From Myxococcales bacterium (lineage in GTDB: Bacteria > Myxococcota_A > Polyangia > Polyangiales > Ga0077539), in contig JAEUKH010000043.1 in NCBI GenBank assembly GCA_016792845.1, positions 25,846 through 89,845 of the forward strand: DNA of 64,000 bases. Direction: 5' to 3'. Shown here one piece after another: positions 23,867 through 50,539 of this stretch. Below the pieces are notes generated by a model. It was not told the DNA's origin and made no database searches. It worked only from the letters and a program-made list of their open reading frames with translations. Within the stretch, counting starts at the first letter, position 1. Each line of letters starts with the position of its first letter. Both the position numbers and the translations under genes were made by a program.

Positions 23867-26326
<2,460 letters not shown>

Positions 26327-34164: not shown

Positions 34165-36522
34165 TCAGCGCGTCGGGTTCGGCCGCGCGGGCCCCTGGGT
34201 CGGCGCCTCGACGGGCACCCTCACGGGGGTGTATCCGCGCCGCCCCTCGGCGCCCCGCACCCGCGCCAACGCGAGCTCGGCGAAGAGCCGCGCGATCGGC
34301 CGCGCGTCCGACACGTCGCGCTGCCCGAGGGGGTCGTCGGCGGGCACGAGGAGCGCCACCCCGCCCCCCGCCGCGGCGGGCCTCGGCAGCGCCAGGAGCT
34401 CGCCGAATCGAAGCCCCGTGTCGCCGCGGGTGTTGAGCGTCACCGGCACCGCCCGATCGTTGAGGGTGAGCGGGCGAAAGAGCGAGCGACCGTCCCAGTC
34501 GGGCACGCGCTCGACCCCGAACACGTCGAGGAGGGTGGCCGCGCCGTCGAGCCCCGTCACCAGGCTCGCCGCGAGGGCCCGCGGGTCGAGCCCAGGCCCC
34601 GACGCGATGAGCACCGTCGAGCCCGAAGCCCGCAGCGTCAACGCGCCGTCTTGGATCACCCGCGCCTCGCCGAGGGCCGTGCCCCGGTCGCCCGACACCA
34701 CGAACAGGGTCTCGTCGAGCATGCGGGCCTCGCGCAGCCGCTCGATCATCGTCGCGAGGGCCCGATCGACCCCCCGCAACGCCGCGTCGTAGAGGAGCCC
34801 GAGGCGCTCCTGGTCGCGGGCGTCGATGCGGACCTCGCCGCGCCGCACTCGGGTGAGCAGCACCGCCGTCTGCCCGGGCGTCATCGTGCCCTCGTAGGGC
34901 GTCGGGTCGAGGGCGTGAATGTCCTCGTTCGCGGGGCTGAGCGGCAGCAAGCCCGACCGCAACACCAGCACCGAGACGTAGCGCCCGCGCGAGGCCAAAA
35001 GCCCCTCGGTGGCGGGCCCGAACAACGCCTCGGGCGTGCAGCTCTCGGCCTCGTCAGGGCACGGGTGAAAGTTCGCCCCGCGCGCCGCCCCAGAGCTCGC
35101 CCACGCCCGATCGTCTGCCCAAGCCTCGACCGGAATGCCCAACTCGACCAGCGAGGCCAGGGCCCGCGGCGCGTCATCGGCGAGCCGCTCGGTCGACTCG
35201 GTCACCCGGTGAAGGTCTGACGCGAGGCCCGTGCTCACGCTCGTCAACGCGGCGAAATTTCGCGACGCCGGCGAGGCCGCTTCGAGCGCGACGCCGCGTT
35301 GTTGCAGCGCAGCAAAGCCGCCCGCGTTGAGGTGCGGCGAGAGCGTCGGCACGAAGCGATCGGCCCGCGCGCCCCGCACGATCACCCACACCACCCGCTT
35401 GATCTGGGTTGGCGCCCCCTCGCCGCGGTGACCCTGGTCGCGGAGCTCGATGCGCGGCGACGACAGCGCGAGACGCACCTCGGAGCGCGGCGCCTCGACG
35501 CCCCCGTCAGGCAGCTCGGCCTGCGCGTCGTCAGGCGACGGCGCCGGGCTGAGCGCGCTCACCGAGAAGCGAGCCGGGCGCCCCGCGAGGGAGCCGAGGT
35601 CGAGCTCGACCCCCACCCAGGGCTGATTGGGCTGCACGACCACGCGACGCTCAAGGCTCGGCACGCCATCGGCTTCGACCCGCACCCGCGCCGTGAGAGG
35701 CCTCGGCGCCCGGGCCGCGCCGCGGGGAGCCTCGGCCGCCAGGCTCGCACGAAACACCGCCCCGCGCGGGATGACCTCGAACGCAGAGAGCGTCGTCGGC
35801 GGATAGAACGTCAGCGCGCGCCGCGGCGTACGCTCGACGGCCACGTCGTTGAGGAGGTCGACCACCCGGGTCACCGGCGTCGCGCCGCGGGTGAGATGCA
35901 CCCAATCGACCTCGGCCGAAGGCGCCGCGCTCGGCCCCGTCTTGGGCGCCCGCGGGAAGCGCAACTCGACGTCGGCCATCGCGCGGGTGAAACGATCGGC
36001 CGGCACCGACGCGCTCACCACCGTGCTCTGGGCGTAGGGCGCGAGCGCCGCCACCCGCACGAGGAGCCCGTCGACCACCACCGCCACCGAGCGCGCCGTC
36101 GCGTGCCGAACCCGCAGCCGCACCGTGTCGGGCGCAGGCAGCGGCTCGCCCGACAGGTCGCTGAGGCTCCGCGATTCGAGGGGCACCCGCAGCCGCACCC
36201 GCCCCGCCACCGAGGCCCACGAGTCGCCGTTCAAGGTCTCGGCCCTGAGCACCGTGCCCGCCGAGAGGTAGGCCGACGCTTGGGGCTCTCCGAGGTCGAC
36301 CACGGGGCCCGCCACGTCGATGCCGCCTTGGCGAAACGCCTCGGTCAGGTCGATCGCGTTCGGCGGCAGCTCCTCGCCCACCGCAGGCGCGGCGCTGTCT
36401 TGTTGCACCGCAGCATCGCCCCGGGGCGCCGCCGCGCGACGCGACCCGCACCCGAGCGAGACGAGACCCACGGCGACCGCGAGGCTGAGCGCCCGCGCGC
36501 CGCGCACCGCCCCGAGCCTCAT
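34165..36522 (-). CDS. Large hypothetical lipoprotein
   Basis: Lipobox LVSLGCGS. 785 aa of mixed composition. No confident domain assignment. Confidence 0.55.
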   Translation of the reverse strand: MRLGAVRGARALSLAVAVGLVSLGCGSRRAAAPRGDAAVQQDSAAPAVGEELPPNAIDLTEAFRQGGIDVAGPVVDLGEPQASAYLSAGTVLRAETLNGDSWASVAGRVRLRVPLESRSLSDLSGEPLPAPDTVRLRVRHATARSVAVVVDGLLVRVAALAPYAQSTVVSASVPADRFTRAMADVELRFPRAPKTGPSAAPSAEVDWVHLTRGATPVTRVVDLLNDVAVERTPRRALTFYPPTTLSAFEVIPRGAVFRASLAAEAPRGAARAPRPLTARVRVEADGVPSLERRVVVQPNQPWVGVELDLGSLAGRPARFSVSALSPAPSPDDAQAELPDGGVEAPRSEVRLALSSPRIELRDQGHRGEGAPTQIKRVVWVIVRGARADRFVPTLSPHLNAGGFAALQQRGVALEAASPASRNFAALTSVSTGLASDLHRVTESTERLADDAPRALASLVELGIPVEAWADDRAWASSGAARGANFHPCPDEAESCTPEALFGPATEGLLASRGRYVSVLVLRSGLLPLSPANEDIHALDPTPYEGTMTPGQTAVLLTRVRRGEVRIDARDQERLGLLYDAALRGVDRALATMIERLREARMLDETLFVVSGDRGTALGEARVIQDGALTLRASGSTVLIASGPGLDPRALAASLVTGLDGAATLLDVFGVERVPDWDGRSLFRPLTLNDRAVPVTLNTRGDTGLRFGELLALPRPAAAGGGVALLVPADDPLGQRDVSDARPIARLFAELALARVRGAEGRRGYTPVRVPVEAPTQGPARPNPTR

Positions 36523-39500
36523 GGCGCGATCGCGAGGTGCACCACCACCGCACGACCCAAGCGCACCGTCGCGAACTCGAAGCCCGTCACCACGCCCGCC
36601 TGGTAGCGCACCGTGTGCAGGCCCTCGCTCAGCCGAAGCACCGCCGGGGCCGCGCCGACAGGGCGATTGTCGACGTCAAGACGGACCCCCGCCGCCCGGG
36701 TCTCAAGCACCAGGAGGCCCTCGTTGGCCCCGAGGCTCCCGCCATCGAGCCAGGGCCCGGGGTCGAGCCCCTCGGCGCCGCCGTCTGAGCCCGCGGGCGT
36801 CGCAGCCGCCGCCGCGGCCTCGTCGTCGGCCTCGGCCCCCGCGTCGAGGCCCGGAGTTTGTTGCACCGCAACAGGGTCTCGCTGCGCCGCAACATCGGCC
36901 GCGGCGTCGGCCTCGACGGCGGCCCGCGGCGCCCGCGACACCCAAGCGTTCACCGCGAAGTAGCTGAGCGCGAAGGCCACCACGACCCCCAGCAAGAGCG
37001 CCACCGAGCGGCCCCACGGCGACGGCGGCGGAGGCGACTGAAACGCGGTCGGGCGCATCGACGCGGGCGCGCGACGCGGGGCCTCGATCGACGACGCGCT
37101 CGGCGACGACGCGGGCTCAGCAGCCGCGGGCGCCGGAGGCTCTGGTGTCGCTGGCGCCTCTGGCTCGGCGCGGGGCGCTGCGAAGAGCGCCGCGGCGAGG
37201 CTCTGCTCGCTCACCTCATCGATGGCCTGCGGGCGTGGCGCCGGCGGCGGCGGCGGACGCGAGGGCGCGGGCGGCGGGTCGGTGTACGAGAGCTCCGAAG
37301 CCCCCGGCACGCCGCGAGGCGCCTCGGGCGCACCCGGCACCACCGCGGCGGCCATTTGTTGCAGCGCAACATCGTCACGCTGCGGCGCAACCTCGTCGGC
37401 CTCGGCCCCGTCGCCGAGGGCCGCCATCACCCAGCGGCCGCCGTCTTCGTCGGCCTCGCGCACCAGAGGCTCTGCCACCGGCGGCATCGACTCGGTGCCC
37501 GCGGGCGCGAGCTCGGGTCGCGAGGCCCGCACGAGCGCCGCCGCGGTCTCGGGCGCGATCTCGACGGTGACCCGCGCGCCCGCATCGGGCTCGGGCGCCT
37601 CGACCTCACGCGCGGGGCTCTCGCTCAGCGGCGCGGGCGCAACTTTGAAGGCCGTGGCCAGCGCCTCGGGAGCCTTCTTCGTGAGCAACGACACCGGCGC
37701 GGGCTCCGAGGGCCGCGTCGCCTCGACGAGGGGCGTGAGCGCGAGCGCCGACACCCGCGCGGTGGCGTCGGCGTCGACCCGCATCCCCGCAGGCACCTTC
37801 GGCGCCGCAGGAATGCTCGTCAACGGGATGTGCGCCCCGCCCGGCGGCGTCACCGAACGGGTCACGAGATCGCCGAGGTCGGGCAGCGGCACGTCGGGCG
37901 TCGCCAAGAGGGCCACCGGAGGCGGCGAGCGCCGCGGGCTCTCGTTGGGCCGCGTCGCCACGAGCCCCGCGTCGAGCACCACCTCTGACCAGCTCTCTTC
38001 GGCGTTCGGGGCCGTCGCCTGCATGCCCCACATCACCACGTCGGCGAGCGAGGCGAGGCTGTCGACGCCGGCCGACGCGGCCGCCTCGTCGACCTTCACC
38101 TCGACCGGGCTCGACACCGGCTCGGGCGCAGGGGCCGCCGGAGCCAGGGTCTCGCGCGACACCGTCGGCGCACGCGGCGGCGGCGGAAGCGCCGGCATCA
38201 CCCCCACCGGCGCCTCGGGCGCGGGCGGCATGCTCGACGGATTGTGCACCGCAGCAAATCGCGTCTCGACCTCGGGCAAGGGCCCGCTCACCGGCGCGAT
38301 GTTGAAATCGAGGGTCTTCCACCCGGCGCGGGGCGGGTCGGGCGCGAGCTCAGGGCCCACCGCGGCCATCGGAGCCGTCTCGACCCGCGCGCCGCTCGGC
38401 CCCACCACCCGGGTGATCGCGCCGCGCCGCGCCAGCTCGACCAACACGGGCTCGATCTCGGCAGGGCTCACGCCGTCGCGCAAGATCATCTCGCGCGGCG
38501 CGTCGCCCGTCGCGACCCGCTCGACCAACCGACGCATCGGCGCCGGGAGCGAGCGCGCATAGGCCAGGGCCGCCTCGGTGTCGAGCTCGACGCGCACCAC
38601 CTCAAGCAAGGCCGCGCCCGAGACCGACGACTCAAGGGTCACCAGCGCGTCGGCGCTGCGCCGCAAGAGGGCCGAGAGGGGCTCCTGAATGGTCGCCCGC
38701 ACCGCGTGACGCGCGCGGCTCACCGTGAAGCGCGCGGCCGAGGCGCCGAGCACCTGCATGAGCGCCGTCGCGCCGCGGGTCAGGTTGCCGTCGGCGCCCG
38801 TACGCACCGCGTTCACCACCGCGCCGCCGCGGAGGTCGAGCTCGGTCACGCTCACCGAGTCAGAGATCGCCACCGTGGCGTCGCCGAGCGAGACCGCGAC
38901 GGTGGTCAGCAAGGCCACCGCGCCGACGTGCTCGACGCGCCCCCGCACCTCGCCCGCGGTGAGGTCGGCCACCCGACGCAAGAGCCGCACGCGGAGCCGC
39001 AGCGTCGCGCGGATCCGCGCGAGGATGGCCTCGCCCGAAGCCTCTTTGCGGAGGTACCCCTGGGCGCTCGCGCCGAGCTCGCGCATGCGCTGAAGGAGGT
39101 CGTCCTTCCATGAAATCAAGATCACCGGCGTGTGGCGAAGCACCACGTCGCGGCGAAAGGCGCGGCAGAGCCCGAAGCCGTCGAGGCCCGGCATCAGAAT
39201 GTCGCTCACCACCACGTCGGGCTGCGTCTCGCGCGCCCGGGCCAGCGCCGACTCGCCGTCGTAGCAGCCCACCACCCGCATCCCCGCGTCGCGCAAGAGC
39301 GACTCAAACTGCGACACCACCGCGCGGTCGTCGTCGACCACCAGCGCGAGCCGCCCGGGCAAGGGGTCATCGCCGCGCTGCGACTCGAACGCGCCAGGGT
39401 CCTCGCTCAGCGAGAACACATCGGTGCCCGGCAAGCCCCGCGGCGCCGCCGGGAGCTGAAACTTCACGGCCCCCTCGCTCGACCGCTCGATCACCTCACG

Positions 39501-40658
39501 AATCCGCGCGATGGCCTCCCAGGTGGCGGCGAGCACTTCGCTCCCGTGGCCGAGCGCGATGCGTGCGGTGCGCGCCCGCGGCGCCGCGGCGCCCACGATG
39601 CCGCGCTTCAGCTCGTCGGTCAGCGCCGTCACGAGCTCGTCGAGGGTGAGGTCGCCGAGGTCAGACTCGGTAGGCGGCGGCACCGACGCGACGCCGCCCT
39701 TCACCGCGCGCACGATGGCCTTGCGAAGCGTCTCGCCGTCGGCCGCGTCGGGCAAGACGTCGAAGGCCTCGGTGAGCCGAAACCGCACGCTCTCGGTGTC
39801 ATCTCCGGCCGAGGCCAGGAGGATCACCGGTAGAAACTCCGTCACCGGGTCGCTCTTGAGCGCGTCGAGGAGCGCCACCCCGTCGGCGGGCGGGTCGAGC
39901 TCGGCCACGATCACGTCGGGCGCCGTCTCCCGGGCCCGCACCACGGCGTCGTCGTAAACCCGGGTGACCTGCACCTCGACGTCGGTGCCGCACGCTTCGA
40001 GGAGCGAGCTCGCCCGCGCCGTCGAGCCGCAGAGCAGCACCTGGAGGGGCCCCGTCGGCGAGGGCGCCGCCACCGCGCCGCGGGCCGCACCGATGGGCGC
40101 GAAGGGCGCGAGGTCGGCGGTGATCGTGCGCGGCGACCCGGGGCCCCTCGGAGCCTCCGCCGCGGGGCTCTCGGGCGTGCTCACGGCGTCGAGCCCGAGC
40201 GGCAAGGTCGCACCGGGCGGAGGCGGCCCGAACTTCTCACCCGTCGGCCCCAACGCCGGCGGAAAGAGCGTCAACGTGTGGTGCGGGATGTCACTCCGCG
40301 TCCCCTGCGGGAGCGACATCGCCGCGGGCTTGGCCGAGTCTCGGGTGTCGAGCTCGGCCCGCGAAGAGAGCGACGCCACCAGCGCGGCGAGGCGATCGAG
40401 CTGCGGGCGCTGAAGCGCAGGCTGCGACCGCGTCGCGTCGACGAGGTCGATGATGGCCTTGAGCCCCTCGCAGAAGCTAGGCAACCCGTACGAGCGCGCG
40501 AGGGCGTGAACCCCCACCGCGCGGCGCTTGAGCTCATCGCGCATGCGCGTCGAGCGCGGGTCGGCGATGAGCGCCCCGAGGGTCGCCTTGATTTCGACGG
40601 TCTTGCGGGGCAGTCCGCGCAGAAACGCCTGGCGTGGATCTTCACTTTCGTCGCGCAC
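36519..40658 (-). CDS. Multidomain response-regulator-like protein: pseudo-receiver plus canonical REC domain, long Pro/Ala-rich region, TM segment, C-terminal PEGA domain
   Basis: REC domain: ALVVDDDRAVVSQFESLLRDAGMRVVGCYDGESALARARETQPDVVVSDILMPGLDGFGLCRAF...PVILISWKDD. An earlier degenerate REC: QVLLCGSTARASS...DVIVAEL...LPVILLAS. The C-terminal GLLVLETRAAGVRLDVDNRPVGAAPAVLRLSEGLHTVRY resembles PEGA. Confidence 0.75.
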   Translation of the reverse strand: MRDESEDPRQAFLRGLPRKTVEIKATLGALIADPRSTRMRDELKRRAVGVHALARSYGLPSFCEGLKAIIDLVDATRSQPALQRPQLDRLAALVASLSSRAELDTRDSAKPAAMSLPQGTRSDIPHHTLTLFPPALGPTGEKFGPPPPGATLPLGLDAVSTPESPAAEAPRGPGSPRTITADLAPFAPIGAARGAVAAPSPTGPLQVLLCGSTARASSLLEACGTDVEVQVTRVYDDAVVRARETAPDVIVAELDPPADGVALLDALKSDPVTEFLPVILLASAGDDTESVRFRLTEAFDVLPDAADGETLRKAIVRAVKGGVASVPPPTESDLGDLTLDELVTALTDELKRGIVGAAAPRARTARIALGHGSEVLAATWEAIARIREVIERSSEGAVKFQLPAAPRGLPGTDVFSLSEDPGAFESQRGDDPLPGRLALVVDDDRAVVSQFESLLRDAGMRVVGCYDGESALARARETQPDVVVSDILMPGLDGFGLCRAFRRDVVLRHTPVILISWKDDLLQRMRELGASAQGYLRKEASGEAILARIRATLRLRVRLLRRVADLTAGEVRGRVEHVGAVALLTTVAVSLGDATVAISDSVSVTELDLRGGAVVNAVRTGADGNLTRGATALMQVLGASAARFTVSRARHAVRATIQEPLSALLRRSADALVTLESSVSGAALLEVVRVELDTEAALAYARSLPAPMRRLVERVATGDAPREMILRDGVSPAEIEPVLVELARRGAITRVVGPSGARVETAPMAAVGPELAPDPPRAGWKTLDFNIAPVSGPLPEVETRFAAVHNPSSMPPAPEAPVGVMPALPPPPRAPTVSRETLAPAAPAPEPVSSPVEVKVDEAAASAGVDSLASLADVVMWGMQATAPNAEESWSEVVLDAGLVATRPNESPRRSPPPVALLATPDVPLPDLGDLVTRSVTPPGGAHIPLTSIPAAPKVPAGMRVDADATARVSALALTPLVEATRPSEPAPVSLLTKKAPEALATAFKVAPAPLSESPAREVEAPEPDAGARVTVEIAPETAAALVRASRPELAPAGTESMPPVAEPLVREADEDGGRWVMAALGDGAEADEVAPQRDDVALQQMAAAVVPGAPEAPRGVPGASELSYTDPPPAPSRPPPPPAPRPQAIDEVSEQSLAAALFAAPRAEPEAPATPEPPAPAAAEPASSPSASSIEAPRRAPASMRPTAFQSPPPPSPWGRSVALLLGVVVAFALSYFAVNAWVSRAPRAAVEADAAADVAAQRDPVAVQQTPGLDAGAEADDEAAAAAATPAGSDGGAEGLDPGPWLDGGSLGANEGLLVLETRAAGVRLDVDNRPVGAAPAVLRLSEGLHTVRYQAGVVTGFEFATVRLGRAVVVHLAIAP

Positions 40659-43218: not shown

Positions 43219-44556
43219 ATGGCAGACATCGGCCCCCGCCCTCGCACGTCGCTCCCCATCGCGCCCAAGGCCGCTCCGGCGCGGCGGTTTCTGCCCCTGG
43301 CCGACGCGGTTCGACCCATCGACCAGCGCTGGCAGCCCATCTACGCCGTCTGGGAGATCACCCTCCGCTGCGACCTCGCGTGCCGTCACTGCGGCTCCCG
43401 CGCGGGCAAGACCCGCCCCGACGAGCTCAGCACCGCCGAGTGCCTCGACCTCGTCAAGCAGATGGCCGAGCTCGGCACCCGCGAGGTCACCCTCATCGGC
43501 GGCGAAGCCTATCTCCGCGAAGACTGGACGGAAATCGCCCGCTCGGTGCGCGACCACGGCATGGAGTGCACCATGACCACGGGCGGCCGCGGCCTCACCC
43601 CCGAGCGCGTCAAGGCCGCCAAAGAAGCGGGCATCCGCAGCGTCTCGGTGAGCGTCGACGGGCTCGAAGAGACCCACGACGCGCTGCGCGGGGTCAACGG
43701 CTCGTGGCGCGCCGCCTTCGAGGCCCTGCGCAACCTCCGCGAGGCGGGCGTCCATTGTTCGGCCAACTCGCAGTTCGGCCGGGCGTCGCTCTATGAAATG
43801 CCCGAGGTCTTCGAGCACCTCGTCGCGGCCGGCATTCACTCTTGGCAGACCCAGCTCACCGTCGCCATGGGCCGCGCCGCCGATGAGCCCAAGCTCCTCC
43901 CTGAGCCCTTTCAGATCCTCGAAGTAATGGCCATGCTCGCGCGGCTGAAGAAGCGCGCCGACGCCCACCGCGTGCGCATCTGGCCGGGCAACAACATCGG
44001 GTACTTCGGGCCCTACGAGTCGACCCTGCGCGGCACCCTGCCCCGCGGTCACATGGCCTCGTGCGGGGCCGGGCGCTCGACCCTCGGCATCGAAGCCGAC
44101 GGGAGCATCAAGGGTTGCCCCTCGCTCCCCACCAGCGAGTACACCGGCGGCAACATCCGAGACAACAGCCTCCGCGACATCTGGGAGCGCTCGAAACCCC
44201 TACGGTTCACCCGCGATCGCACCGTCGAAGACCTCTGGGGCTACTGCCGCGACTGCTACTACAACGACACCTGCCGCGCGGGCTGCTCGTGGACGACCCA
44301 CGTCCTCCTCGGCAAGCCCGGCAACAACCCCTACTGTCACCACCGCGCGCTCGAGCTCTTGCGCGAGGGCAAGCGCGAGCGCGTGCGTCGGGTCTCGCCC
44401 GCGCCGGGTGAGCCCTTCGACCACGGCATCTACGAGATCGTCGTCGAAGACTGGCCCGCCGACGAGCTGGCCCGCGCTGAGGCCCTCGCGCGCACCGGCG
44501 AAGGCTGGCTGAGCGACGGCCCCACGCCCCCCGAACCCTTGCCAAACCGCGGCTGA
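43219..44556 (+). CDS. Radical SAM enzyme with C-terminal SPASM domain (peptide/protein-modifying rSAM maturase family)
   Basis: CX3CX2C cluster is WEITLRCDLACRHCGS. SPASM is CGAGRSTLGIEADGSIKGCP plus CRDCYYNDTCRAGCSW. Confidence 0.85.
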   Translation: MADIGPRPRTSLPIAPKAAPARRFLPLADAVRPIDQRWQPIYAVWEITLRCDLACRHCGSRAGKTRPDELSTAECLDLVKQMAELGTREVTLIGGEAYLREDWTEIARSVRDHGMECTMTTGGRGLTPERVKAAKEAGIRSVSVSVDGLEETHDALRGVNGSWRAAFEALRNLREAGVHCSANSQFGRASLYEMPEVFEHLVAAGIHSWQTQLTVAMGRAADEPKLLPEPFQILEVMAMLARLKKRADAHRVRIWPGNNIGYFGPYESTLRGTLPRGHMASCGAGRSTLGIEADGSIKGCPSLPTSEYTGGNIRDNSLRDIWERSKPLRFTRDRTVEDLWGYCRDCYYNDTCRAGCSWTTHVLLGKPGNNPYCHHRALELLREGKRERVRRVSPAPGEPFDHGIYEIVVEDWPADELARAEALARTGEGWLSDGPTPPEPLPNRG

Positions 44557-44601
44557 ATCACCCCCTCAACCGCCACCCCCCCAAAGAGGAAGATCGTTCG
44601 C

Positions 44602-45234
44602 ATGGCCTACAAACCCCTCATCCCCTGTGAAGGCTGTCACCGCCACGTCTTGGCCGCCGAGACGGCGTGCCCCTTCTGCGGCGAAGCCCGCGAAGCCCAG
44701 GTCGTGCGCGCGGTGGCCCCGCCGAAACGCGCGACCCGCGGCGCGCTCTACACCTTCGGCGCGGCCCTCATCATCGCCGGCTGCGGCAGCACCACCGGCG
44801 GCGAGAACAACACCCCCGCCGACGGCGGCGCCTCGCAAGACGTCGCCCGCACCCCGGGCGACAGCAGCGTGAGCGACGCAGGGGCCCGCGACGCCGGGTC
44901 GGGCCAAGACGTGCCCGCCGCCCGCGACGCGTCGGTCGAAGACGTCGGCGGCCCCGTCGCAGCGTACGGCGCCCCGCCCGACCGCGACGCAGGCCCCCGT
45001 GACAGCGGCCCCGACGACGACGGCGGCGCCATGGCCGAGTACGGCGCCCCGCCCGACGACGGCGGCACCAACGCCGACTACGGCGCCCCGCCCGACCGCG
45101 ACGGCGGCGGAATTGCACCGCTTTATGGCTTGCCTCCGAACCATGACGCAGGTCAGGGTACCGGCGATGACGGCGGCGGCGGCGGCGGGGTCATGCCCCT
45201 CTACGGCGCCCCGCCCGACGCGGGTTGGCAGTGA
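44602..45234 (+). CDS. Zinc-ribbon/lipobox protein with five tandem [x]YG[AL]PP[DN] repeats (putative rSAM-SPASM substrate)
   Basis: N-terminal CEGCHRHV...CPFCGE. Hydrophobic segment with lipobox-like ALIIAGCGS. Asp/Gly-rich region with AYGAPPD, EYGAPPD, DYGAPPD, LYGLPPN, LYGAPPD. Starts 45 bp after the rSAM stop. Confidence 0.6.
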   Translation: MAYKPLIPCEGCHRHVLAAETACPFCGEAREAQVVRAVAPPKRATRGALYTFGAALIIAGCGSTTGGENNTPADGGASQDVARTPGDSSVSDAGARDAGSGQDVPAARDASVEDVGGPVAAYGAPPDRDAGPRDSGPDDDGGAMAEYGAPPDDGGTNADYGAPPDRDGGGIAPLYGLPPNHDAGQGTGDDGGGGGGVMPLYGAPPDAGWQ

Positions 45235-45262
45235 ATCCGAACAGCTGAGAGGTAGTACTGTG

Positions 45263-45793
45263 ATGAAATCCTTGGTTCCTTGTCCGTCGTGCGGTCGCCA
45301 CGTCAGGGTCAGCGAGGCGGCCTGCCCGTTCTGCGCGACGGCGCTCCCGACCGACCTCGCGGCCCGCGCGATCCCCTCGTCGTCGGGGCGCTTGAAGCGC
45401 GCCGCGGCCTTCGCGTTTACCGCCACCCTCACCCTCGCCGGGTGCAGCGACGACCCCACCCCCGCGGCCGACTCGGGCGCCGTGGTCGACGCAGGCGGCA
45501 GCGACGCGGGCTCACAAACGACCGACAGCGGCGTCCGTGACGCAGGCCCCGGCGACGACGGCGGCGCCATGGCCCTCTACGGCGGCCCTCCCGTCGACGC
45601 GGGCTCAGCCGACGCCGGGCCCCGTGACGACGGCGGCGCCATGGCCCTCTACGGCGGCCCTCCCGTCGACGCAGGCCCCAGCGACGCAGGCCCCGACGAC
45701 GACGGCGGCTCGGCGGCCCTCTACGGCGCCCCCGCCGACGCAGGCCCCGGCGTCCGTTACGGCGCGCCCCCGCCCCCCGACAGCGGCGTCTGA
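45263..45793 (+). CDS. Paralogous zinc-ribbon/lipobox protein with four LYGGPPVD-type repeats
   Basis: CPSCGRHV...CPFCAT zinc ribbon. LTLAGCSD lipobox. Repeats LYGGPPVD x2, LYGAPADAG, RYGAPPPPD. The ATG at 45263 is preceded by GAGAGG. The track's longer N-terminal extension is junk. Confidence 0.6.
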   Translation: MKSLVPCPSCGRHVRVSEAACPFCATALPTDLAARAIPSSSGRLKRAAAFAFTATLTLAGCSDDPTPAADSGAVVDAGGSDAGSQTTDSGVRDAGPGDDGGAMALYGGPPVDAGSADAGPRDDGGAMALYGGPPVDAGPSDAGPDDDGGSAALYGAPADAGPGVRYGAPPPPDSGV

Positions 45794-45840: not shown

Positions 45841-46401
45841 TCACCGCAAGTACGGCGCAATCGCATGGAGCACCCGCTGCCCCACGGGGTCGCCCACGCA
45901 CGCCACCGCCACCTGGCAGAGGGTCGACGCGATGGCGTAGTGCAGCGGCGCCTCGCGCGGGTTCGGCGACCACGCCGAGAAGCGCGACACGGTCTGCCCG
46001 ACCTTGGCCTCGTAGGCGATCCAAACACCGTCGCGCCCGCGCACCGGCACCGAGTGGAGCGGCAGGTTCGGCATCGCGGCCAGCGCGGCGTCGCTCATGG
46101 CGGCCTTCACCGTGGCCTCCCACACGCCAGGCGCGGCGGGCGGCGTCGACACCGGCGGGCGCATCCCGGCGGCGGCCAAAGTCGCCTCGCGGAGCGACAG
46201 GTCGGCCGCACGCACCTCCACCCACCCCCCGACGCCGATGTCGCTCAAGGTCACCGCCACGACGTCATGAAACGCCGGAAAGAACACCGCCCGCCACACC
46301 GCATCGACGCGCTCGAAGCGCGAGTGTTCGAGCGCGACGAGGCCCATCGCCTCGCACAAAAGCGCCCGGCTCCGGGCCATCGGGTCAGTCGGGGCGTGCA
46401 T
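45841..46401 (-). CDS. Hypothetical protein
   Basis: Protein-like composition (F/H/W/Y present), unlike the overlapping Arg-rich plus frame. No domain recognised. Confidence 0.35.
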   Translation of the reverse strand: MHAPTDPMARSRALLCEAMGLVALEHSRFERVDAVWRAVFFPAFHDVVAVTLSDIGVGGWVEVRAADLSLREATLAAAGMRPPVSTPPAAPGVWEATVKAAMSDAALAAMPNLPLHSVPVRGRDGVWIAYEAKVGQTVSRFSAWSPNPREAPLHYAIASTLCQVAVACVGDPVGQRVLHAIAPYLR

Positions 46402-46507: not shown

Positions 46508-48014
46508 GATGGGCCCGATGACGCACCGTGGTTGGCTCCTAGGGGCCGCGATTTGTCTTCTCTCGACCGCCGCCCAGGCCGACGACCTCTGGGTCGCCAC
46601 CACCGGCCGGAGCGGCAACCCCGGCACCCGCGCCCAACCCATCGACACGATGCAGAACGCCCTGCGGCGTGCGCGCCCGGGCGACCGCGTGCTCGTGAGC
46701 GCCGGCGTCTACCCCGGCGGCGGCTGGATCGACGCCCGCGGCACCGCCGAGGCGCCCATCACCGTGGTGTCAGCACACGGCCTGCACCGCGCCGTGCTGG
46801 AAGGCGGCCGCGAGGGCCTGCGCATCGGAGACGGCGGCGCCTACTTGGTCTTCGAGGGCCTTGAGGTGCGCAACACCACCGACAACGTGGTGCACATCGA
46901 CGGCGACAGCCACCACATCACCCTGCGCCATCTCTACGCCCACGACGCGGGCACCGAGGGCGACGTGCTCAAGGTCAACCAGGCCCACCACATCGTGGTC
47001 GAGCGCTCAGAGTTCGCGCGCCCCGGGCGACGCCTCCCGCCGAACGAAAACCCCTACCAGGAGTGCATCGATTTCGTCGCCACCGACGAGGTGATCGTGC
47101 GCGACAGCTACATCCACGACGGGGGCGGCAATTTGCTCTACGCCAAGGGCGGCTCGCAGGGGGTGGTCTTCGAGCGCAACGTCATCGCCGACCAGCGCGC
47201 GGGCGCCGCCGACCCGATGGTGGGCCTCGGCGCCGTCACCGACCGCAACCTCATCGCCCACGGCGGCAGCTTCGAAATCTACGACGTGGTGTTTCGCAAC
47301 AACATCGTCGTGTCGGGGCGCCACGGCGCGCTCGCCATCTACGACGGCCGCAACGTCAACATCGCCAACAACCTCTTCGTCGACAACGACCGGGTGCTCG
47401 TCGAGTTTCGGGCCGGCAACGGTTCGGCCGCGCGGAGCGAAGGGGTGCGCCTGGTCAACAACGTGTTCGTCGACACCCGCGGGAGCATGCCCGGGCCCCT
47501 CGTGCGGCAGTCGCACGGGGTCGAGGGGCTCTTTCTCTCGCACAACGCGTACTACAACCGCGGCCAGGCCGTGCCCACGAGCGCGCTCAGCGAGCTCGCG
47601 GCCCAAGACGGATACCTCAGCGAAGACCCGCGCATCGCCCTCGCGACGGGCGACCGCAGGGTGCTCATGCGGGCCTTGAGACCCGCCGAGGGCTCACCCC
47701 TCGCGGCCTCGGGCTTCGACAGCGCCGCAGAGCCCTACGAGGTCACCCGCGACATCTCAAACCTCACCCGAGACGGCCGCCGCGACCGCGGCCCGTGGAA
47801 CCTCGGCGTCGCCCTCCCCCCGCCCGAGACCGACCCCGCGCCCCTCTTCGCCGAGAACGAAGCCCCCGACGCCGGCCCCCCGCAGATCGGCCCCGTCGCC
47901 GACGAGGGCGGATGCCACGCCCGCCCGGGCCCAGCGCCTCGCCGAGGCCCCGCCGCGCCCCTCGTAGGCCTCGTCGCGCTCGCTTGGCACAGCCTCCGCC
48001 GTCGACGCCGCTAG
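46508..48014 (+). CDS. Secreted right-handed parallel beta-helix (pectate-lyase-fold) protein with MYXO-CTERM-like tail
   Basis: Signal peptide MTHRGWLLGAAICLLSTAAQA. Repeated N-x-x-x-x-N/asparagine-ladder segments (VRNTTDNVVHIDGD, FRNNIVVSG, IANNLFVDN, LVNNVFVDT). The C-terminus GGCHARPGPAPRRGPAAPLVGLVALAWHSLRRRRR is Cys motif, hydrophobic stretch, then Arg run. Confidence 0.7.
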
Positions 48015-48765: not shown

Positions 48766-49467
48766 ATGAAAGCCGCGATGCTCTTCTCGGCGGTGGCGCT
48801 GATGGTGCTGCCGATCTTTGTCACCGCGCGGGTGCGCGCACGGCTGAAGTTCTCGCGCAGCCTCGTGGCCCTCGGGGCGGCGAGCTTCGTGCTCTCGCAG
48901 GTGGTCCACGTCCCGCTCCTTGTGAAGCTCCAGCCTGGCCTCTTGCGGCCCTTCTGGCTCGCCGCCGCGGTGTTGGGGCTCCTCGCCGGGCTCTGCGAGG
49001 AGCTCACCCGTTACCTCGCCCTCCGCGCCCTGAAGAAGACCGACGTGGCCGACGGCGTGGGCTTCGGGCTCGGGCACGGGGGCGTCGAGGCCTTCCTCCT
49101 CGGGCTTGTGATCTTCCTCGCGCTGGTGTTCAGGCTCCCGGTGGCGTCGCCGACGCTCTCCAGCGTGGCCCTCCAGGCGCAGCTCCCGGGCTGGGTGCCC
49201 CAGGCCGTCTTGCCCGTCGCCGAGCGGGCCATGGTGCTCACCCTCCACGTCGCCTTCACGCTCCTGGTCCAACAGAGCGTTCGGGCCCGCCGCCTCCGCT
49301 GGCTCGCCCTCGCGGTGCTCGCCCACGGCCTCGTCGACGCCGCGGTGCTCTACCTCTTCGTCAACGTCGGGCCCCTCTCGGCCGAAGCCGCCCTCGGCCT
49401 CGCGACCCTCACCGCGGTGCCCATCATCCAGCACTTTCTCGCCCACCGCGACCCGCCCCAAGGCTGA
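48766..49467 (+). CDS. Polytopic membrane protein, YhfC-family intramembrane metalloprotease-like
   Basis: Seven or so TM helices. Motifs CEELTRY and GFGLGHGGVEAF resemble the YhfC/DUF2324 EExxR and GHGGxE signatures. Confidence 0.5.
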   Translation: MKAAMLFSAVALMVLPIFVTARVRARLKFSRSLVALGAASFVLSQVVHVPLLVKLQPGLLRPFWLAAAVLGLLAGLCEELTRYLALRALKKTDVADGVGFGLGHGGVEAFLLGLVIFLALVFRLPVASPTLSSVALQAQLPGWVPQAVLPVAERAMVLTLHVAFTLLVQQSVRARRLRWLALAVLAHGLVDAAVLYLFVNVGPLSAEAALGLATLTAVPIIQHFLAHRDPPQG

Positions 49468-49609
49468 ACCCCCTCCGACACCCGACGCCTCCTCGACCCC
49501 GTCGCCGGTGTCGCACCTTTCGGCGGGTGTACGCGCAAAACGGCCTGCGTTGCGTGCAGAGAGTGGCTTGACGCAACGGGGGTTGGCTCGATACCGTTCG
49601 TCACTCACG

Positions 49610-50539
49610 ATGTCGTCGGCCAAAGAGCCCCCAGACGCAGAGGCCGAGCCAAACTGGCAGGCGCGTACGCAGGTCACGCGCCTCCCCGAGCTGCCACGCT
49701 CGGGGGGCTCTGATTGCTTGGTGGTGATCTACACCCGCGAGGGCCGCGGCCCCATCGGCAAGCGCGTGCCCCTCGACGGGCCCATCGGCGAGCTCTCGCT
49801 GGGCCGCGACGTGCAGAACAACCTCGTGCTCGACTACGAGTCGGTGTCGCGTCGGCACGCCAAGCTCGTGCGCCGCGATGCCGTGTGGTGGGTGGTCGAC
49901 AACAACAGCACCAACGGCACCTACGTCAACGACCAGCCGACACGCGAGTCGCCGCTCCGCAACGGCGACCGCATCAAGATCGGCGACGTGATCTTGAAGT
50001 ACCTCTCGGCGGGCGACCTCGAAGCCGAGTTCATGTCGACCATCTCGCAGATGATGGTGACCGACGGGCTCACCCAGGCCGCCAACAAGCGCTACCTCGT
50101 CGAGCAGATCAACAACGAGCTCAAGCGCTCGATGCGCCACGGTCGGCCCCTCGGGCTCATCATGTTTGACATCGATCACTTCAAGCACGTCAACGACACC
50201 TACGGCCACGTCGCGGGTGACTTCGTGCTGAAAGAGGTGGCCGAGATCGTGCGCGGGCGCATCCGTAACAACGAAGTGTTCGGCCGCTACGGCGGCGAAG
50301 AGTTCGCGCTGCTGTTGCCCGAGACGACCTTGCAGGGCGCGTACAGCCTCGCCCAAGACCTCCGCGAGCTCGTGCAGGCGCGGCCCTTCGTGTTCGACAG
50401 CTATCAGATCCCGGTCACGGTGTCGCTCGGGGTGGCCGAGTGGGCGCCCAACATCAAGACCTCTGATGAGTTCATCCGCGTGGCCGACGACAAGCTGTAT
50501 CAGGCGAAGCGCGGCGGGCGAAACCGCGTCGTCGGCTGA
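49610..50539 (+). CDS. FHA-domain-containing diguanylate cyclase (GGDEF)
   Basis: FHA: LSLGRDVQNNLVLDYESVSRRHAKLVRRDAVWWVVDNNSTNGTYVN. GGDEF: RYGGEEFALLLP, with upstream FDIDHFKHVND. Confidence 0.85.
   Translation: MSSAKEPPDAEAEPNWQARTQVTRLPELPRSGGSDCLVVIYTREGRGPIGKRVPLDGPIGELSLGRDVQNNLVLDYESVSRRHAKLVRRDAVWWVVDNNSTNGTYVNDQPTRESPLRNGDRIKIGDVILKYLSAGDLEAEFMSTISQMMVTDGLTQAANKRYLVEQINNELKRSMRHGRPLGLIMFDIDHFKHVNDTYGHVAGDFVLKEVAEIVRGRIRNNEVFGRYGGEEFALLLPETTLQGAYSLAQDLRELVQARPFVFDSYQIPVTVSLGVAEWAPNIKTSDEFIRVADDKLYQAKRGGRNRVVG

Follow-up and report, generated by a model that had tools for sequence, protein, structure and literature searches.

The 64,000-nucleotide stretch of DNA examined here (positions 25,846 to 89,845 of contig JAEUKH010000043.1, from the Myxococcales bacterium assembly GCA_016792845.1; hereafter the window, to which all coordinates refer) contains, in a region of about 70–75% G+C, three tightly packed genes on the plus strand. 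The first (43219–44556) encodes a radical S-adenosylmethionine (rSAM)/SPASM enzyme of 445 amino acids (aa), a predicted tyramine splicease, for which the AlphaFold 2 (AF2) model has a predicted local distance difference test score (pLDDT) of 84.5. It is followed by gene A (44602–45234; 210 aa) and gene B (45263–45793; 176 aa), whose products combine a zinc ribbon, a lipobox and a set of repeats, five of the type xYGxPP in A and four of the type xYGxP in B, and are predicted splicease substrates. A preliminary description of the locus, made from the sequence alone, had proposed these genes as an undescribed system in which the enzyme modifies the repeat proteins, by analogy with triceptide and GRRM systems. 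Its placing of gene A 45 bp after the rSAM stop codon and on the same strand is exact; gene B is likewise adjacent and on that strand, but at a distance of 28 bp and not of the 29 bp given.

In DNA of such composition, long open reading frames (ORFs) could arise by chance, and the same description had named GC artefacts as a threat to its proposal. The frames of genes A and B are, however, real coding sequence. This is established by their third-codon-position G+C content (GC3 of 0.872 for gene A and 0.887 for gene B, compared with 0.906 for the rSAM gene), by GAGG-type Shine-Dalgarno sites 10–12 nt upstream of the ATG of both genes (AAGAGGAAG at 44584–44592 for gene A and GAGAGG at 45247–45252 for gene B, both on the plus strand), by the deposited NCBI protein JNK72_22435 (a hypothetical protein of a Myxococcales metagenome-assembled genome, MAG), which is identical to the gene B product, and by repeats at the DNA level (Tandem Repeats Finder: three copies of period 72 with 85% match in gene B; periods of 39 and 57 in gene A). 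Orthologues of gene A occupy the equivalent position in loci L001, L005 and others, and look-up in the assembly index returned no exact record for the rSAM enzyme. Two competing frames were rejected as high-GC artefacts: an antisense ORF of 334 aa (44566–45570, minus strand; GC3 0.785), and a 264-aa upstream extension of the gene B frame (44999–45262, plus strand) that overlaps gene A, the start at 45263 being supported by the starts of orthologues and by the deposited 176-aa protein. A scan for promoters and terminators gave nothing above shuffled expectation.

The enzyme has the CX3CX2C radical SAM cluster and the complete twin-cluster SPASM region reported in the preliminary description. 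The former (CDLACRHC, aa 51–58; 43369–43392, plus strand) has three cysteines that are invariant in an alignment of 59 sequences (alignment A3), and the latter extends from CGAGRSTLGIEADGSIKGC (aa 282–300) to CRDCYYNDTCRAGC (aa 343–356) at 44062–44286 (plus strand). Pfam recognises both domains (Radical_SAM, E=5e-27; SPASM, E=7e-9, aa 282–347). In a scan of NCBIfam, in which 68 families matched at E≤0.01, the best match was TIGR04103, ‘nif11-class peptide radical SAM maturase 3’ (513 bits, E=4.8e-154; cut-off 725), followed by TIGR03913, the GDL motif peptide-associated rSAM/SPASM maturase (493.5 bits, E=4.8e-148; cut-off 591.75). The third match, TIGR04133 or ‘rSAM_w_lipo’, reached 172 bits, far under its cut-off of 425; it takes its name from co-occurrence with a predicted lipoprotein and would set a precedent for the pairing of an rSAM enzyme with a lipoprotein, though it serves as a lead only. 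Of the 68 matched families 25 were listed, and none of these is a triceptide or GRRM model; placement among families sets the enzyme nearest to TIGR04103, and then to TIGR03913, instead of the groups to which it had been likened. On these scores the enzyme is to be regarded as a member of a sister clade of TIGR04103 and TIGR03913, and not as an equivalog member of either.

We take TIGR04103 to be the basis of InterPro IPR026482, and hence to be the family of the splicease PlpX. Proteins of Nostoc and other organisms with the NCBI name ‘nif11-class peptide radical SAM maturase 3’ served as stand-ins for PlpX in alignments, and the window's enzyme is 56% identical over 376 aa to one of these, from Nostoc edaphicum. 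PlpX itself has been assigned to IPR026482 (PMC11002830). A sequence search of the PDB retrieved distant rSAM/SPASM enzymes only, among them SkfB and PqqE, and no splicease of solved structure; the cluster names of 50%-identity representatives were uninformative, and a literature search by accession found no mention of TIGR04103 or TIGR03913.

The enzyme differs from its cyanobacterial relative in an N-terminal extension of about 40 aa (43219–43338, plus strand), rich in Pro and Arg and specific to the Polyangia clade. The Nostoc protein lacks it, the alignment beginning at aa 42 of the window's enzyme and aa 8 of that of Nostoc. The extension is modelled as coil by AF2 and contains 11 residues that are invariant within the clade (R7, P8, L12, P13, A15, A18, L25, P26, L27, R32 and D35). 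It could dock the leader of the substrate, and might stand in for the Y protein or for the contact with a leader helix that is found in other spliceases.

Genes A and B encode proteins of like design, with a CxxC-x10-CxxC zinc ribbon, then a segment resembling a signal peptide that leads to a lipobox cysteine (Cys61 in both), and finally a disordered tail rich in Asp, Gly and Pro that bears the repeats. The ribbon is CEGC-x10-CPFC in A (aa 9–26; 44626–44679, plus strand) and CPSC-x10-CPFC in B (aa 7–24; 45281–45334, plus strand), where AF2 predicts a pair of zinc-ribbon hairpins (aa 1–30, pLDDT 90–95), followed by a helix (aa 40–59) and a disordered tail. The preliminary description was thus right about the N-terminal ribbon, but its spacing of 12–15 residues is wrong, x10 being found in both proteins and in 107 of 115 relatives. 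The N-terminal consensus of these relatives is M.sLvPCPsC.RHVR..E.ACPFC, followed some 20 residues on by RL.RAA.FAF.A.L..[AG]C. Gene A has no Pfam or NCBIfam match and gene B only sub-threshold zinc-ribbon or zinc-finger matches, and their homologues are all annotated ‘hypothetical’ or ‘zinc ribbon’. A reading of the ribbon as part of an anti-sigma factor or other regulator was considered and set aside, as the Pfam and NCBIfam scans gave it no family support.

The lipobox-like AGC after a hydrophobic segment, also noted earlier, is present in both proteins: IAGC in A, at the end of KRATRGALYTFGAALIIAGC (44725–44784, plus strand; recognised by its pattern), and LAGC in B, at the end of RLKRAAAFAFTATLTLAGC (45386–45445, plus strand; recognised by its pattern and in the AF2 model). 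Among the relatives, 100 of 115 have a lipobox-like tetrapeptide of the pattern [LVIAMFTG][ASTVIGL][GAS]C, which is looser than the canonical [LVI][ASTVI][GAS]C. The cysteine is preceded by an uncharged stretch with a median of 14 aa (range 10–19), which by its sequence has the length of a signal peptide and not that of a transmembrane segment; the n-region has a net charge of +2, and the residue at +2 after the cysteine is Gly or Ser. The position of the cysteine in the family has a median of 62 and a range of 40–70.

Past this cysteine the repeats appear in the motifs and in the number of copies originally listed. Those of A are AYGAPPD, EYGAPPD, DYGAPPD, LYGLPPN and LYGAPPD, with five predicted splice sites in the region 44962–45207 (A-Y-G at 44962–44970, E-Y-G at 45037–45045, D-Y-G at 45076–45084, L-Y-G at 45121–45129 and L-Y-G at 45199–45207, plus strand). 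Those of B are LYGGPPVD (twice), LYGAPADAG and RYGAPPPPD, with four predicted sites in the region 45575–45763 (L-Y-G at 45575–45583, 45647–45655 and 45719–45727, and R-Y-G at 45755–45763, plus strand). All nine tyrosines past Cys61 in the two proteins are followed by Gly. The same holds for the family: in 100 relatives, 308 of the 317 tyrosines located after the lipobox cysteine have Gly as the next residue, where composition would predict 69, and 301 have Pro at +3 or +4, an enrichment of Y-G far above chance. A logo of 366 Y-G sites from the 115 relatives gives D-D-G-G-x-x-[PA]-[LAM]-Y-G-[AG]-P-P, in which Y and G are at 100%, Pro at +3 is at 85% and Pro or Ala stands at −2; Gly occupies the second position after Tyr in 22% of the sites, among them the two LYGGPP sites of gene B. 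The proteins have 2–5 such units each. The earlier view that the invariant tyrosine is the likely target is supported.

The residue X that precedes the tyrosine is variable (Leu 37%, Ala 15%, Met 12% and Arg 8% of the 366 sites). Particular residues are conserved at particular positions; in the majority consensus drawn from 48 aligned sequences (alignment A2), for example, B-type proteins end their series of units with RYGAPPPPD. Such position-specific conservation suggests that the side chain of X matters in the product. Some proteins with the same ribbon and lipobox have diverged sites (FYGIANP, FYGSPG, VYGAPPF and AYGTPYP; L045:7314-7892, L054:7098-7733, L069:5301-5684 and L070:3-674), and these indicate that Pro at +3 is not obligatory.

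Close relatives of the enzyme occur across the Polyangia, with 64–91% identity in 76 Polyangia loci and more than 583 relatives matched in a genome scan. In order to count how often they are accompanied by repeat proteins, 79 loci were scanned by a fixed rule (a zinc ribbon and then at least two YGxP or YGxxP motifs), and the pairing was scored in 61 loci, those that offered 700 bp or more on each side of the rSAM gene. Of these, 54 carry one to five repeat genes beside the rSAM gene, and 58 do so when variant motifs such as FYGIANP are counted. All 113 repeat-gene matches are on the strand of the enzyme and within about 3.2 kb of it, mostly at less than 100 bp; in the 79 loci, none was found elsewhere in the flanks (up to 6–8 kb per side) or on the opposite strand. 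The layout varies: the nearest relative of the window's locus has three repeat genes downstream of the enzyme, and in Labilithrix and one other lineage a single repeat gene lies directly upstream of it, in surroundings that are otherwise unrelated. Gene clustering of the 79 loci found only the rSAM and repeat-protein families to be conserved; the next family, Ddl, is confined to 12 closely related loci, and no conserved protease, transporter, RiPP recognition element (RRE; RiPP, a peptide made by the ribosome and modified after translation) or Y-protein gene was seen beside the module. In a reverse check that started from the repeat protein, two of three homologues on long contigs adjoin a gene for an rSAM/SPASM enzyme; the third is an orphan. 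The rSAM gene and the repeat gene thus form a conserved two-gene module, and the suggestion of a linked pair resembling enzyme and substrate is borne out.

The orphan is the zinc-ribbon/YG protein P0214 (L087/L088:3501-3962), which has no rSAM gene closer than 3.5 kb and presumably depends on an enzyme acting in trans. Two modules occur in some MAGs or contigs (L012 and L041; L027 and L036; P0012 and P0120 on one contig). In the closest relatives of the window's locus a second, paralogous rSAM/SPASM gene follows three repeat genes and precedes a gene for a Rieske protein (L001:11346-12545 and L086:4591-5910); that of L001 matches TIGR04103 with 464 bits, and the window has no second enzyme. 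The fetched loci and the window, when clustered, included 84 rSAM genes across 68 loci.

These data bear on whether A and B are substrates at all. They might instead be membrane-anchored zinc-ribbon regulators or scaffolds, with the true substrate of the enzyme encoded elsewhere or being a small molecule. Zinc ribbons combined with transmembrane segments are common among regulatory proteins, P0214 has no rSAM gene in its vicinity, and the conservation of the enzyme across Polyangia is unusually high for a RiPP maturase. Such a role would, however, leave unexplained why 97% of the tail tyrosines stand in Y-G-x-P, why the motif is identical to the splice motif beside three other branches of the enzyme clade (described below), and why the two genes are almost always adjacent on the same strand; we regard it as highly improbable.

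The other branches of the clade carry the argument from pairing to chemistry. Four were sampled (the cyanobacterial TIGR04103 branch, a peptide-type branch, TIGR03913 and the clade of the window), and all adjoin partners that bear X-Y-G. At the Nostoc edaphicum locus, a Nif11-type precursor with three QP[LM]YG[VI] sites is followed by the rSAM gene and then by an ORF of 54 aa, a layout equal to the published PlpA-PlpX-PlpY arrangement (compare PMC5995677). In the peptide-type branch, the enzyme is 48% identical to that of the window and is found in genomes of 11–12 Mb, and other members are annotated as Myxococcota or Acidobacteriota; upstream of the rSAM gene are leader-core peptides of 58–61 aa that end in CPRPLYGVPPETS or CPRPLYGVPTGVPM. 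By its sequence features, this branch is a second splicease-like system. Its peptides at L082:3760-3936 and L083:3734-3919 end CPRPLYGVP..., and a C39 peptidase/ATP-binding cassette (ABC) exporter is encoded near one of them (L083). In the TIGR03913 branch, a true family member (P0242, 771 bits) precedes two DUF1843 proteins with three and five LYGV(V/P)IQDA...GDL units (L084:2902-3713, where three and five LYGV motifs stand beside ‘GDL’ motifs). A crystallography paper on a DUF1842/DUF1843 protein treats self-assembly, and the word ‘radical’ occurs in it 0 times (PMC10994174); to judge by their motifs, such proteins may have gone unrecognised as substrates of a splicease.

At XYG, spliceases cut out tyramine; they tolerate differing residues as X and more than one site in a substrate, and they can also work on proteins (PMC11414181; PMC9811515; PMC10373908). 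X-Y-G is the hallmark of tyramine splicing, and binary splicease systems that work without a Y protein are on record (PMC11414181). The [PA]-[LAM]-Y-G-x-P context of the A/B family matches the splice tag of PlpA2, PIRPLYGLPI, which has been used experimentally (PMC10533398), as well as CPRPLYGVPPETS and CPRPLYGVPTGVPM of the sister enzymes. Splicing is preferred over cross-linking because all four sampled branches of the clade adjoin X-Y-G partners and because the site context matches this tag. In the competing reading, the enzyme would link each tyrosine through a three-residue cyclophane of the triceptide type, or through another C-C or C-O bond, with a mass change of about −2 Da per repeat and with the backbone left unspliced. 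Many rSAM/SPASM maturases of RiPPs make cross-links at aromatic residues, the repeats of A and B place an aromatic residue in a regularly spaced aromatic-x-x context, and an enzyme that scores under the cut-offs of the splicease-type families may have diverged in chemistry. Against this stand the absence of a triceptide or GRRM model among the listed families, with a third match (172 bits) far behind the first two, the strict presence of Gly after Tyr in all 366 sites, and the 22% of sites in which Gly at the would-be partner position offers no C-beta. The pairing of four enzyme branches with X-Y-G substrates, the cyanobacterial branch of published splicease type among them, also goes against it. 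Cross-linking is accordingly quite unlikely, and the triceptide/GRRM analogy of the preliminary description is not supported.

It is probable that the module is a binary splicease system, in which tyramine would be excised at each xYG of A and B before the proteins are exported and probably lipidated. This reading starts from what is observed, namely the architecture of the genes, their conserved linkage, the homology of the enzyme and the agreement of the motif with known splice sites; from these we infer the splicing chemistry, a function of the zinc ribbon as leader, the export and lipidation of the products, and their action as protease inhibitors. The cytoplasmic enzyme would bind A and B through the zinc ribbon and the linker, or through each self-contained DDGG...YGxPP unit, and would remove a tyramine equivalent (C8H9NO, −135.07 Da) per x-Tyr-Gly, at the five sites of A and the four of B, so that the sites would be left as alpha-keto-beta-amino acids (ketoamides). 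The zinc ribbon would stay in the cytoplasm, probably as a leader or docking element, or else to delay export until modification is complete. The basic n-region, the h-region of about 14 residues and the lipobox (L/I-A-G-C) resemble a lipoprotein-type signal placed unusually far from the N-terminus. The core would be an acidic, disordered region of about 100–150 aa, rich in Gly, Ala, Pro and Asp, with 2–5 units of the form DDGG-x2-[PA]-[LAM]-Y-G-[AG]-P-P, and this unfolded, modified tail could be exported through Sec. Signal peptidase II would then cut at Cys61, removing ribbon and signal in the manner of a RiPP leader protease, and the cysteine would be lipidated. The envelope-anchored tail would display 2–5 ketoamides, most plausibly as multivalent warheads that inhibit Ser/Cys proteases, whose specificity would be set by the retained side chain of X (Leu, Ala, Met, Arg and others). 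Ketoamides of known spliceotides do inhibit Ser and Cys proteases (PMC11414181; PMC9811515). The more specific picture, of Polyangia envelope lipoproteins with a backbone edited before export, in which 2–5 Tyr-Gly sites become alpha-keto-beta-amino acids and the zinc ribbon and signal form a RiPP-style leader removed by the lipoprotein signal peptidase, is put forward tentatively, at somewhat less than even chances.

Splicing might also lead to a different fate. A and B could be multi-core precursors that are cut between the repeats into diffusible ketoamide peptides, the ‘lipobox’ segment being a mere export signal or anchor. The 2–5 units per protein and the 1–5 paralogues per locus would suit such precursors, each unit has its own conserved DDGG...YGxPP context as in multi-core RiPPs, and known spliceotides are peptides, some of which are exported by peptidase-containing ABC transporters (PCATs; compare L083). 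On the other hand, neither a protease nor a PCAT is conserved beside the module, no conserved cleavage motif is evident between the units, and the lipobox-like cysteine is kept in 100 of 115 proteins behind an h-region of signal-peptide length. This fate is considered unlikely.

Several points weigh against the binary splicease system with anchored products. The enzyme scores under the curated cut-offs of both TIGR04103 and TIGR03913, and its chemistry could have diverged. No conserved protease, transporter or RRE is found nearby in the clustered loci. Some of the X residues are Asp, Glu, Pro or Arg, and a DYG site of RcsA is left unspliced by its enzyme (PMC11626197), so that some sites may go unused. 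The cysteine of the lipobox lies far beyond the usual window of residues 15–35, which makes lipidation uncertain and a signal anchor the alternative, and modification by the rSAM enzyme has to outrun Sec export. Finally, the proposed inhibition of proteases is extrapolated from spliceotides that are unrelated.

The proposed system can be compared with several described ones. The type I spliceotide systems, e.g. PlpA/PlpX/PlpY of Pleurocapsa sp. PCC 7319 (TIGR04103), have an enzyme of the same rSAM/SPASM clade and, as seen in Nostoc, adjacent substrates with several P-[LM]-Y-G sites. The system of the window, by contrast, has neither a Nif11 or NHLP leader (Pfam and NCBIfam scans) nor a small Y (RRE-like) gene (79 loci), its substrates are proteins of 170–210 aa that bear a zinc ribbon and a signal like that of lipoproteins, and it belongs to Polyangia and not to cyanobacteria. 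The binary, or type II, systems RhaX/RhaA, RcsX/RcsA and RasX/RasA of Rheinheimera likewise have two components and no Y protein, and in these the precursor itself supplies recognition (PMC11414181; PMC11626197). Compared by description and not by sequence, the Rheinheimera precursors have a short helical leader and one or two core sites, whereas A and B have a zinc ribbon, a signal peptide and a core repeated 2–5-fold. TIGR03913 operons share the presence of paralogous, protein-sized partners with several YG sites (P0242; PMC10994174; PMC12114271); A and B, however, have no DUF1843 domain (no match to PF08898) and no GDL tripeptide, and are signal-bearing disordered repeat proteins, whereas the DUF1843 partners are helical and look cytoplasmic. 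Triceptide (3-CyFE) and GRRM systems also set an rSAM/SPASM gene beside short repeats that have an aromatic residue at their centre, but their maturases are not among the 25 families listed for the enzyme, and the A/B motif requires Gly after Tyr and has Gly at the would-be cross-link residue in 22% of sites. With classical bacterial lipoproteins (Lgt/Lsp/Lnt), A and B share the positive n-region, the h-region with a median of 14 residues, the [LIV]-[AS]-[GA]-C lipobox and, at +2, a residue of small size; in the classical proteins the cysteine is at 15–35, while in A and B a folded zinc ribbon and a linker, together about 45 residues, precede the signal and the cysteine is at about 61.

The claim of novelty can therefore be upheld in part. 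The substrate architecture has no Pfam or NCBIfam family, and a family of zinc-ribbon/lipoprotein repeat substrates appears to be undescribed in the literature consulted; the enzyme kind and, as judged by its homology to spliceases, which are its close relatives, its chemistry are already described. Paralogous partners of protein size that bear YG also occur outside the system of the window, in the DUF1842/DUF1843 operons beside TIGR03913 enzymes. According to secondary sources, Scott et al. (Chem 2022, 8:2659) reportedly listed 27 characterised and 939 predicted splicease systems, the latter predicted by YG richness beside rSAM/SPASM genes, and the zinc-ribbon type of substrate may already be part of that catalogue. 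No route to ribosomal alpha-keto-beta-amino acids other than spliceases is known to us. Their biological roles have largely been inferred from protease-inhibition tests on synthetic representatives, and mature spliceotide natural products in native hosts ‘remain elusive’ according to a 2022 review (PMC9811515). The wide conservation of the module, its 1–5 substrate paralogues, the lack of other dedicated genes and the lipoprotein-like substrate point to a housekeeping function in the envelope rather than a sporadic secondary metabolite, and the module is a tractable place to study the in vivo role of ketoamide residues. If the proposal is true, it would provide a native, protein-sized and cell-anchored product of tyramine splicing, in which RiPP logic is merged with the lipoprotein pathway. 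It would also give spliceases a physiological role, e.g. as a multivalent shield against proteases, tethered to the cell surface, in bacteria whose group is noted for predation and abundant secretion of proteases. A natural leader-plus-repeat protein substrate with several sites, and its compact unit DDGGxx[PA][LAM]YG[AG]PP, could possibly be used in splicease protein engineering.

Downstream of gene B are an ORF on the minus strand without a family (45841–46401; 186 aa) and three plus-strand genes, which encode a right-handed beta-helix protein (46530–48014), a YhfC-type intramembrane metalloprotease (48766–49467) and a protein with a GGEEF (diguanylate cyclase-like) motif recognised by eye only (49508–50539). 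None of these four neighbours is kept beside the module in other genomes. On the other side, the minus-strand gene at 36519–40658 encodes a protein of 1379 aa, rich in Pro and Ala, with one response-regulator receiver domain (aa 439–550) and a C-terminal membrane segment, and otherwise unannotated.

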